A stretch of 63,158 nt of DNA, filler included, from Catajapyx aquilonaris (Eukaryota): NCBI GenBank assembly GCA_000934665.2. It is 2 parts of 2 records of this genome, joined end to end, with 100 filler letters (N's around TTAATTAATTAA, not from the genome) between each part and the next. Parts side by side here need not be neighbours in the genome. Positions count along the whole stretch, not along the records: positions 31,648 to 63,158 come from JYFJ02004524.1; 1 more part is not named here. The stretch is one strand, 5' to 3'. How positions within the stretch are numbered: the first letter of the stretch is position 1; the number at the start of each line of letters is the position of its first letter. This document shows positions 42,201 to 46,013 of the stretch, one piece after another. The position numbers and the translations under genes were made by a program. The notes under the pieces were generated by a model. It saw only the letters and a program-made list of their open reading frames with translations. It was not told the origin of the DNA and made no database searches.

Positions 42201-45200
42201 ATGGCCTCTACCACTCTCCTGCTGCTCTTCGCCGGCCTAGTGGCGTTGGCTGTTGGCCTTGCCATCGACAACTCCACTCAGGTATTACGCATTCATATTG
42301 TTTCATTCATTCACAATTTGCAACTTAAAAGGTGCTTCAGCCCCTAATTTGAAAATTCTCCTGGACTGTTCTCATGCACTAATGAGTTCATATTTAATTA
42401 CATAATACAAACAATGTTAATATTATCTCTTGGTGCAAGAGGAAAAAGACCCTGATCAGATCTCCAGCAGAGGTAACCCGTTTTACGACCTTTTCAAAAT
42501 AACCCTCTGAAATACCCGTATGAAAGTTTGAATTTTTTTTGCAAAAATTTAAAGTAGCAAAACATCTAGCAGTCACAACTTCTGTGATTTCAAACACTCA
42601 ATTGACGATTTTTGTGTGTGTTTTTAGTGGATTATTGTGGCAGGGTGCATAGATATATCTTACAGTATAGGCTACCATTGGTCTCTGCATTCCCCGAAGT
42701 TCTCCCCGAGTCCCCGTTGTTACAATACGTGTACTGCAGTTCTTGCCAAAGACGGGAAAGGAATCCTCAGAATCAGATGACCCTCAACCTGGAACCTCTC
42801 ACGCATTTATTAAGTGTTTAAAATACTATTCAGTATAAAACAGCAATATTATTAGGCTACTGTTGATAGGAAATTTTAGGAACCTATTTCATTCAATTAC
42901 AACAATTAGGCCCCGTTTCACGCCGTTCCCCTTTACGACCCTGTTTTTCTGTAACCTAACCCCGTCGTACTGTACCAGTATTGTTTTTTTAATTATTATG
43001 CGAGATGAGGCATAATAGCGGAAAGGGAAGTTTTCGTGTAATTTAATGCAGAAGGGAATATTATGAAATGCGATATTTACAATTTTTTTTCTCTTCACTC
43101 GTGTAGCGAGTAGTACAGGTAGAGTACACCAATATATACAGGGTGTTCTAAGTTCGTGGGTCGTTTCACTTTTAGTAATTTAGTCATAAGAAATGCTCGA
43201 AGCTAGTGTCATTTTTTGTATAGCTTGATGCACCCCTAAGCAGGTTCCCTATTGCATGTTTATAGCAACTATTACATTGGACCACCTGGGAGTAATAATG
43301 GGGTACCTGGATCGGGGCGCAACAAGCTACACAAAAATAACTACATTGGGCGATATTAGTGATAACTAAAAACTACCCACGAACTTGCAATCCTCTGTAT
43401 TTGCAGGTGATCAAAATATGATAGACCTATAGCTTGGAAATAGAAAGTCTATACTTATACGGTACTGTACAAAATAGACTAGTAACACGATCTTGAAAAT
43501 GTTATGGTCCAAATTTTGCATAACCTGAAATTTCCCGTTTGTACAGTATAAGTGCTCCAATAAATCACTCAATTTAGTCGCGTCAGTAAAATTAGTGGCA
43601 CTGCTCGTAACATCCGCTCTACTCGTAGTGCAGCGAAAACTGTGTAAATCATTGAAACTGTCACGACAGCAAATTTCTTTTGCAGGTCGAGAGACCGTCT
43701 GCTCCTCAGTCTTCTTTGCAAAAAAAATGCCTTAAAAACCGTCACATTAATTGCTCTTAATTAGTTTGTGAAGAGGCGAGCCGCATCCAGTGCAGCTCGT
43801 AGGTCAGTTTTGCTGTTCTCCGGGTCACTGCCAAGGGCATCCGTTCGCCATTAGTTTCTTGCCTCCACTTTTTCTACTCCTTTTTAGCATAAGTCTGTTG
43901 GCCGCAATGAATGGATCTCCTTGTTCAAAAGGACACCCGACAAGGCCCCTTTGTACCATGATCTTATAGCATGTCTGCTCTTTTCGTGTGCGTATTTTGT
44001 AAAAAGTAGTTTCTCCCGTATTATATTTTCAGCTGGATGCGTCACAGGTGGAAGAAGAGTGGCATCTGGAAGTTCCTTTGCGAGGAACAAACGCATCTGC
44101 TAATGACTTCAAGATGGAAGCTGTTGTGGACCTGCAGGCTCAGACGACTCTACTGATGGTGGCCACGGGAAATGGTTCTAGCAGCAACCAGACCCAAGCA
44201 CCTGTCACATTTTACGACTTCAGGGCGGTGGGTATTGGCCTGATAATGTGATTGTCCACGGTGTTGATGGCGATTATTCCTACAGGGCATAATGGCAATA
44301 AAAGACGAATCGGGTCTGGGAACGTGTTTTCTCCAGCGCCTGCAGGGGGTGGACCAGATGGAGGAAGTTGAGATGCTGCAACGTATGTCCAGTTTCGACA
44401 ACGATGAAGGCAGTGATTCTGAAGAGGAGGATGATGAAGTGATGACGCTGTTTTGGGCTGGAGGATTCCTCCTGAGTTCAGATCAGGTGCTGGAGGAAGG
44501 CGGACCAAGAGTGGCGAATTTCTGCAGAGGAATGAGGGCAGCGTGGGTGCAGGAGGAACAATCTTTCCTGTCGTCATCACCACGTTCCAAGAGGTCACTA
44601 TCATTTTACCCACCGTCATCTTCGTCGTCGTGGAGAAATGGAAACGGTGGCGGAAGCAGACCCAGTGGCGGAAGCAGACCCAGTGGAGGAGGGTCACACT
44701 GGCCTGCACCTCCGAGCAACGGCCACTCTTCACGACCATGCTCTGGACGATGTGTTCCTTCCTCGTCCTGGAGACCTGGTGGCCCGGGGAGCAACGGTGC
44801 TGGTGTTCCAAGCAGTCATGGTGCCAGTTCTGATAGAGGAAGCGGTACAAGCAGTCGAGGAGGATACTACCCAAGGAACGGTAATGGAGGCTACTACGGA
44901 AGCAGCAGCCGTGGACCATACGGTCCGTCATCACATAGCAATGGGGGTTACGGCCAACACTCGAATGGAGGAAGAGGAAGTACGCCTTCAAATGGTTACT
45001 ATCCAGGAAGCAATGGACGATCTCCATGTTATTACTCCAATTCGAAGAGAAAACCTTGTTCTTCGTCCAGAGGCACCAACGGTAATGGAGGGTATGTAAA
45101 TGGTGGTCAGTCCTACAACGGCGGAACCAGCAGTTCCGGGACATATTCCCGGCACAATGGTGGATCATACTCCGGCAGACACAATGGCGGAACGCATGGC

Positions 45201-46013
45201 TTTGGAAACGGAGGGCATTCGTCCCACGACGGCCACGGCGGGTACGGGAACAGAGACAGCCACTACAGAAACGGACACACAAGCGGAAGAGGAACGCACC
45301 ACGGAGGCAGCCAGTGGAACGGAGTGAGCAACGGCCGAAGAGTGGATGGCTCCTCATTCTCCAGTCAGGCCAAGACCCCTGCTCCAGCACCAGCTCCTCC
45401 ACCGACCAGCAGCACATATCCGGGGCAAAATGGTGGCGGACCCTATCCTGGACACAATGGTGGTGGAACACATCCTGGACAGCACCACGGGGGTGGCACA
45501 CATCCTGGGCAGAACGGCGGTGGCAACGGACGGGGGCAGAAACCTCACCATGTGATCCTGTCGGCCAACGGAGGTCGTTGGGTCCTTCCTCCAGGCTTCA
45601 GAGTGGTTGTCCAGTCATCTCCTTCCGGATCGGCAACCTCCAACGGTCAACATCCTCCCCCCTCTTCTTCGACGGATCAGTCTGGAAGAACCAATGGAAA
45701 CGGAGGTCATCAGCAGAGGCCCTTGGAATTGCATCCAATGCCGTTGGACCACCAGCAGGAGCAGCAACCGCGGGGGCAGCAACCGCGGGGGCCTCACCCT
45801 CCTGCTGAAGCCAGGGTCACCGATCAACACCCTACTCACCAGCAGGGCAGCAGTGCTGCTGGGAATGGCCAACAGCAGGGTCAGGGTCAGGGTCAGGGTC
45901 AGGGTTGCGACTCGTCTTCCGGGTTCAACTGCGTCGTGGTTTATATATCCAATGGTAAAGCCAACCTGTGCAAGCCCACGGCTGCTGGAGGAAGTGGGAA
46001 ATGTTGCTGCTGA
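42201..46013 (+). CDS. Secreted BRICHOS-domain proprotein with long Gly/Ser/Asn/His/Gln-rich C-terminal cargo; exons 42201-42281, 44048-44227, 44286-46013 (~662 aa)
   Basis: Signal peptide MASTTLLLLFAGLVALAVG; two phase-0 GT-AG introns; BRICHOS-type motifs FYDFRA|GIMAIKD..TCFL and VANFCRGMRAAW; RSKR furin site ending 44594; AATAAA at ~46128. Confidence 0.8.
43139..43397. mobile_element. Tc1/mariner-type MITE in BRICHOS gene intron 1
   Basis: TA-CAGGGTGTTCTAAGTTCGTGGGT...ACCCACGAACTTGCAATCCTCTG-TA. Confidence 0.65.

Follow-up and report, generated by a model that had tools for sequence, protein, structure and literature searches.

We analysed a 63,158-nucleotide (nt) stretch of DNA from Catajapyx aquilonaris (assembly GCA_000934665.2), referred to here as the window, in which two records are joined by 100 N and positions 31,648-63,158 come from JYFJ02004524.1. 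Its + strand carries, at 42201-46013, a predicted three-exon gene for a protein of 667 amino acids (aa), in which a hydrophobic N-terminus is followed by an acidic region that is probably a divergent BRICHOS domain, by a putative furin-type processing site and by a long basic tail of low complexity. Coordinates are those of the whole window, and aa are numbered along the predicted spliced product.

Gene model and splicing

Translation of the three exons, which are joined in phase 0 through canonical GT-AG introns, gave the 667-aa product. Exon 1 (42201..42281, +) supplies 27 codons, comprising the start codon and a hydrophobic signal peptide or signal anchor that reads MASTTLLLLFAGLVALAVGLAI, in which the small residues G19/A21 precede IDNSTQ; it ends at the donor CAG/GTATTA (the slash marking the junction). 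A at -3 and G at +4 place the ATG at 42201 in a good start context, and another in-frame ATG is found at 42189. Intron 1 (42282..44032, +) is 1751 nt long and contains a dispersed repeat at about 43128-43400. Exon 2 (44033..44227, +; 65 codons, aa 28-92), bounded by the acceptor ttttcag/CTG and the donor GCG/GTGGGT, encodes a linker and four beta-prone segments and terminates in VTFYDFRA, which includes Asp89 (44216-44218). A second in-frame acceptor for this exon, 15 nt past 44033 at 44048, is weaker, the pyrimidine tract belonging to 44033. The first-pass annotation of this DNA had placed the exon starts at 42201, 44048 and 44286, and these do join in phase, but 44033 is the better acceptor for exon 2. 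Intron 2 (44228..44285, +; 58 nt, GT..AG) is not a multiple of three in length, and its retention would lead to a stop after seven codons. Exon 3 (44286..46013, +), entered at the acceptor cctacag/GGC, contributes 575 codons (aa 93-667) and a TGA stop, and a polyadenylation signal, AATAAA (46129..46134, +), begins 116 nt past the stop codon.

Between the upstream gene and exon 2 there are 36 phase-0 ATG..GT segments, ten of which encode a 12-residue stretch whose mean hydropathy is 2 or higher. In the six of these ten that begin at 42189 or 42201 the stretch is N-terminal, as in a signal peptide, whereas in the other four, at 41158/41188, it is located near the C-terminal end. The in-phase exons, the canonical splice sites and the hydrophobic N-terminus thus support the initial description of a spliced three-exon gene with a signal-like N-terminus.

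The exon-3 stretch is G+C-rich and unusually open in all frames, with a sense frame of 581 codons from stop to stop, which is the longest, an antisense frame of 461 aa and other sense frames of 131-240 aa; this openness of several frames results from composition. Only in the sense frame are a start and a signal found together with splice logic and a polyadenylation signal. We considered the antisense 461-aa frame as the real gene and rejected it, since it lacks start and signal logic and owes its composition, as an artefact, to the bias of the sense strand. A sequencing run (X1, kind unrecorded) contained three contigs identical to 44496-45690, within exon 3, together with fragments of the intron-1 repeat; no X1 contig spans either splice junction, and the X1 data thus carry no information on splicing or expression. 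At 43128-43400, in intron 1, short parts of several X1 contigs match at 90-95% identity and then diverge into unlike sequence, which points to a dispersed repeat family.

The acidic pro-region and its likeness to BRICHOS

After the hydrophobic segment at aa 3-23, a linker of ~40 residues leads up to aa 65-73, which form the first hydrophobic strand. The globular-looking part of the protein has normal sequence complexity, and the pro-region is acidic, with an isoelectric point (pI) of 4.15 and a net charge of -18 over aa 28-195. An acidic loop, DNDEGSDSEEEDDE (44397..44438, +; aa 130-143), separates the proposed helix 1 from the strand preceding helix 2. At the boundary of domain and tail stands RSKR (44583..44594, +; aa 192-195), the sole match in 667 aa to the proprotein-convertase consensus R-x-K/R-R, at which cleavage is predicted from the motif and would create the new N-terminus SLSFYPP. 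Shuffled versions of the protein contained this consensus anywhere in 13.4% of cases, and within aa 180-205 in only 0.55%. The acidic loop, RSKR followed by SLSFYPP, and the 472-aa length of the tail had all been listed in the first-pass annotation, and every one of these was found in the translated exons; the opposition that it drew between an acidic pro-region and a basic cargo agrees with the net charges of -18 and, for the tail, +25.

One Asp and two Cys are the only invariant residues of the BRICHOS superfamily (D144, C160 and C219 in ITM2A; Hedlund 2009, PMC2751770). The proposed BRICHOS-like region (44033..44549, +; ~aa 35-180), which is split by intron 2, would supply this triad as Asp89, Cys106 (44325-44327, +) and Cys172 (44523-44525, +), united only by splicing, as Asp89 is encoded in exon 2 and both Cys in exon 3. 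The intervening residues number 16 and 65, compared with 15 and 58 in ITM2A, and Cys106 and Cys172 are the only cysteines in aa 1-195; a D-x15-17-C-x50-75-C triad arises in 3.2% of shuffles of aa 28-195. The fold of the family combines a beta-sheet with two helices, strand 4 being linked to helix 2 by a disulfide, and the order of the hydrophobic segments here, as judged by eye, fits the strand and helix order given in PMC9714404. In BRICHOS proteins the N-terminus is hydrophobic, a convertase site is present, and the client, a Cys-paired beta-hairpin at the C-terminus, is held against the sheet by a strand between helices 1 and 2 (PMC9714404 and PMC10182729); a candidate hydrophobic strand, VMTLFWAGGFLL (aa 144-155), occupies that position here. 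The hydrophobic region (~19-21 aa) and the linker (~40 aa) are both inside the ranges of 12-33 and 24-105 aa surveyed by Hedlund 2009 (PMC2751770).

A language-model look-up in the ESM Atlas with a 108-aa piece of exon 3 returned a BRICHOS cluster as its first named match (score 0.92, 176 of 256 features in common). The same BRICHOS family set was assigned to 19 of the 30 matches, and the others displayed were gastrokine-2, proSP-C-like and OAF, the last of which is counted in the BRICHOS superfamily in PMC9714404.

A number of results weigh against this assignment, with the reservation that the Pfam, Atlas and fold searches were run on separate exon pieces and that intron 2 splits the most conserved segment, around the Asp and the first Cys. 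Even with E values up to 10 allowed, Pfam detected no BRICHOS (PF04089) domain in exon 2, exon 3, the 108-aa exon-3 piece or three sub-stretches, and the exon-3 piece contains most of the proposed domain. Searches with phmmer found no BRICHOS among PDB chains, the only match being p47 (E 0.44), and, with the 108-aa piece against 1.84 billion representatives, returned two matches, both tandem-repeat artefacts without BRICHOS, in which Pfam recognised BamE, BTB and similar families. The Atlas recognition value for the exon-3 piece was 1920, under the mark of 2300 below which high scores are weak evidence, and the exon-2 piece retrieved only generic beta-propeller look-alikes with scores of at most 0.85. 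An AlphaFold2 model of the exon-3 part of the domain alone had a predicted local distance difference test score (pLDDT) of 49.7, too poor to use, and Foldseek retrieved no PDB structure for this partial-domain model at E <= 0.001. No protein was returned by word-index searches, whether these used the BRICHOS part (at near and shorter lengths) or the last 161 aa. Beyond the domain, the function proposed for the tail is deduced from composition alone. A scan of metagenome contigs produced 575 pattern matches, none of them confirmed, and a tblastn comparison of the spliced product with the window detected no paralogue.

These results bear on a competing explanation, which we regard as possible but unlikely, namely that the gene encodes a secreted low-complexity protein whose acidic propeptide is not a BRICHOS homologue and serves to neutralise charge or to sort the product, the Asp/Cys/Cys spacing and the language-model matches being coincidence. 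Such an explanation would account for the failure of every hidden Markov model (HMM) and phmmer search made to connect the protein with BRICHOS, for an Atlas recognition under the reliability mark with the exon-2 piece not recognised, and for a triad that shuffling produces at the above frequency. However, a chance Atlas match would not be expected to fall on the family already named from the motifs, let alone to give that family's set to 19 of 30 matches, and the other Atlas families displayed are also members of the BRICHOS superfamily. Furthermore, five features have been described for the family, and they agree with the lengths of the hydrophobic region, linker and domain, with where the convertase site stands and with the Cys hairpin proposed at the C-terminus. 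If the domain were not BRICHOS, the locus would be an orphan secreted low-complexity gene. We consider homology of the pro-region to BRICHOS likely, at roughly three in four, although not proven: the domain named in the first-pass annotation is favoured by the triad spacing and by the top Atlas family, but lacks a PF04089 match on any exon piece.

The basic tail and its possible roles

The tail (44595..46010, +) comprises the 472 aa after RSKR and has a pI of 10.06, 10 Cys, a net charge of +25 with 29 His and, when intact, a mass of 47 kDa. It is composed of G (22.9%), S (16.7%), P (10.0%), N (7.2%), R, H and Q (6.1% each) and Y (4.2%), among other residues, and contains the repeats GGSRPS (twice), HNGG, YPGQNGGG, THPGQ (twice), QQPRG (twice) and QGQGQG, so that each repeat string previously reported was recovered from the translated exons. 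Additional dibasic sites at KRK 346-348 and RR 443-444 could split it. Tandem arrays cover 220 of the 1416 tail bases, the Gly codons GGA/GGT/GGC/GGG are used 40/28/23/17 times and Ser uses all six of its codons; the bias is held at the protein level, and the tail is no DNA microsatellite.

Only three segments of the tail, at 514-520, 529-534 and 638-647, have 6-residue windows with a mean hydropathy of at least 1.5. A hydrophobic, beta-prone island (45546..45614, +; aa 513-535) reads HHVILSANGGRWVLPPGFRVVVQSS, and outside this island and a second one, at aa 638-647 in the Cys-flanked C-terminal hairpin, there are 14 V/I/L/M/F in 413 tail residues. The Cys-rich C-terminus (45903..46010, +; aa 632-667; Cys 633, 641, 654 and 665-667) holds, in the last 36 residues, six of the ten tail cysteines and includes the hairpin-like CVVVYIS-NG-KANLC. 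This forms a C-x12-C pattern, C641-VVVYISNGKANL-C654, that is nested in C633/C665 and is found ~445 residues beyond the cleavage site rather than adjoining it. A single-sequence AlphaFold2 model of the C-terminal 161 aa drew the hairpin, but with pLDDT <50 there and 45.6 overall it was too poor to use.

The first-pass annotation had described the tail as the prion-like cargo of a candidate structural or amyloid protein. With 10% Pro, 10% charged residues, 13.3% N+Q and only two short hydrophobic islands, the tail reads differently, and its treatment as a uniform amyloid or prion-like client is not supported by this sequence. In the mechanism that we propose below the tail would be mostly disordered, and the Cys-flanked C-terminal hairpin appears to be a more likely BRICHOS client than the whole tail.

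Release of a C-terminal part by a convertase is known from chondromodulin. CNMD/LECT1 and TNMD match the order of parts proposed for the present protein, with a hydrophobic N-terminus, a BRICHOS domain, a long insertion and then a Cys-bearing C-terminus; their insertion is poorly conserved and probably disordered, and their Cys-bearing C-terminus is conserved (PMC2751770). The present protein differs from them in being G/S/P/N/H/Y-rich and strongly basic and in an N-terminus that resembles a cleaved signal peptide without a cytosolic domain, and the phmmer searches detected no sequence similarity to them. ITM2B/Bri2 and ITM2 share with it a similar Asp-Cys-Cys spacing and the combination of an acidic domain with a basic C-terminal region, their charges being -5 and +6 in ITM2 (Hedlund 2009, PMC2751770). 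In Bri2, furin cleaves after the domain and the client is a Cys-paired C-terminal beta-hairpin, both of which have candidate counterparts here; however, Bri2 frees 23 residues directly after the domain, whereas ~440 low-complexity residues separate site and hairpin in this protein, which, unlike ITM2, has neither a type II cytosolic N-terminus nor HMM-level similarity. The C-terminal regions of BRICHOS proteins range from 29 to 149 aa with a median of 38 (Hedlund 2009, PMC2751770), in comparison with ~487 aa here. Although the tail is far longer than those surveyed, as was implied by the initial claim of a novel long-cargo architecture, the order of parts has its precedent in LECT1/CNMD and TNMD. 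Because these proteins already have a long disordered insertion before a Cys-bearing C-terminus, we view the locus as an extreme variant and not as a new principle: it is probably a lineage-specific gene in which the BRICHOS proprotein architecture has taken a new and extreme form.

The explanation that we favour, with a probability only slightly better than even (roughly 55%), is that the locus, as an animal gene restricted to its lineage, encodes a secreted BRICHOS-type pre-pro-protein. The hydrophobic N-terminal segment would take the chain into the endoplasmic reticulum, where residues ~35-180 may adopt a divergent, acidic BRICHOS-like fold that contains Asp89 and in which a disulfide joins Cys106 to Cys172. 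In the manner of other BRICHOS proproteins, this domain would hold a short beta-hairpin of the protein itself while the chain is being made, for which aa 639-654 are the best candidate and the island at 514-534 a possible one, and its negative charge might offset the basic, His-rich tail. A furin-type convertase would then cut after RSKR195 late in the secretory pathway, freeing the 472-aa tail to join an extracellular material (cuticle, matrix or cement), in which Tyr, His and the terminal Cys cluster could cross-link. The low-complexity stretch most plausibly represents an extreme expansion, to ~440 aa, of the disordered insertion of chondromodulin/tenomodulin.

Judging from its residues, the released tail is most likely to act as a cross-linkable component of extracellular matrix, cuticle or cement. 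The Nereis jaw protein Nvjp-1 and the cement proteins of sabellariids are basic, Gly/His/Tyr-rich extracellular materials, and their likeness to the tail is one of composition only. BRICHOS has been studied as an anti-amyloid chaperone with short hairpins as native clients. If our reading is true, a basic low-complexity product of ~470 aa behind a BRICHOS domain would extend the spectrum of cargos known for BRICHOS, would offer a template for making sticky proteins of low complexity in fused form, and would indicate that an arthropod-like animal has an extracellular material protein not yet named. Our literature searches, which left aside domain-architecture tables and the Chen 2022 supplements (Fig. 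S10), where such cases might be found, turned up no BRICHOS protein whose cargo is long and either structural or of low complexity.

It is also conceivable, though in our estimate doubtful, that BRICHOS was recruited to escort the whole 47-kDa chain, as a phase-separating or self-assembling structural protein, and not only a short hairpin. Just as tentatively, hairpin capture together with charge pairing could in that case keep the basic, Gly/Ser/His/Tyr-rich chain soluble on its way through the secretory pathway, until convertase cleavage triggers extracellular assembly. The locus would then represent a natural self-chaperoned biomaterial precursor with the longest BRICHOS cargo known.

The main functional rival to a structural role is a Gly/His-rich product of host defence, and we judge this rather improbable. 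The precursor would release cationic Gly/His-rich fragments, with cuts maybe at KRK 346-348 and RR 443-444, and a disulfide hairpin with antimicrobial or chitin-binding activity, on the model of the BRICHOS-linked peptides of annelids and of crustacean Gly-rich peptides with Cys-rich C-termini (hyastatin and type II crustins). The polychaete precursors of arenicin, alvinellacin, capitellacin and nicomicin have a signal, an anionic BRICHOS pro-region, a processing site and a cationic C-terminal product, all with candidate counterparts in the present protein. Their BRICHOS sequences are highly divergent, their antimicrobial products, which the pro-regions precede, are often disulfide-closed beta-hairpins, and BRICHOS proteins of one coral have been predicted to be antimicrobial. 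The basic tail, with its pI of 10.06, its 29 His and its extra dibasic sites, is consistent with such a product. However, the polychaete precursors are ~200-240 aa long with mature peptides of tens of residues (33 in the nicomicins), whereas the present protein has 667 aa and a predicted product of 472 aa, which is not the short cationic peptide placed directly after the pro-region that characterises the arenicin type. The terminal hairpin region, moreover, is barely cationic, with a net charge of only about +2, and by inspection is not amphipathic-cationic. Crustacean hyastatins, which join a Gly-rich N-terminal region to a six-Cys C-terminal region, are likewise secreted, basic and Gly-rich with His and Tyr in the accessible part of their description, a likeness of composition only; that part mentions no BRICHOS pro-domain, and we found no sequence similarity to hyastatin. 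Pfam, phmmer and word-index searches of pieces revealed no similarity to any antimicrobial family.

Least probable of all is that the locus is not a functional gene: the model could be mis-assembled, the open frame could be young or in decay, or its openness could be driven by composition. The open antisense and alternative sense frames and the lack of relatives in the libraries searched would agree with this. They are countered by the sense frame being the longest, by the phase-0 joins across two canonical introns that connect it to a signal-peptide exon in good start context, by the AATAAA that follows it, by a bias kept with diverse synonymous codons, and by a globular-looking part of normal complexity.

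Other features of the window

Directly upstream of the gene, at 39958-41017 (+), two open pieces encode C2H2 zinc fingers, the second with several tandem fingers (zf-C2H2 E 2.5e-20), in an array that we take to resemble the Snail/Scratch type. Two intronless frames of ~550 aa with leucine-rich-repeat character are found at 46579-48222 (-) and 8453-10105 (+). The latter matches an F-box-associated leucine-rich-repeat Pfam family (E 2.5e-07); the former has no Pfam match, and its stop-to-stop frame crosses a (TAT)n microsatellite that is read as ~25 tyrosines. A single 608-codon frame at 5137-6963 (-) showed a weak match to the ligand-gated ion channel family PF00060 (29.4 bits, cut-off 30.8) and is possibly a divergent gene of the ionotropic-receptor type. 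Two further frames are without a Pfam match: one of 309 codons at 30523-31452 (-), which ends in degenerate acidic repeats (ITDDLNPEDI, ITDDMKPEDT and similar), and one of 672 codons at 25846-27864 (-), which may be transposon-derived.

Similar translations (GVDYH...) are given by 15303-15871 and 37821-38312. The only Rfam match in the window, a borderline tRNA at 37821-37892 (30.5 bits, cut-off 29), overlaps the second of these stretches, and the two are probably a tRNA-derived dispersed repeat. Frames at 17051-18497 (-) translate, by eye, to a retroelement polymerase. The exons of a cytoplasmic-type alanyl-tRNA synthetase, large and few, occupy 51045-57419 (-); the last exon carries DHHA1, and tRNA-synt_2c was recognised at E 9e-126.

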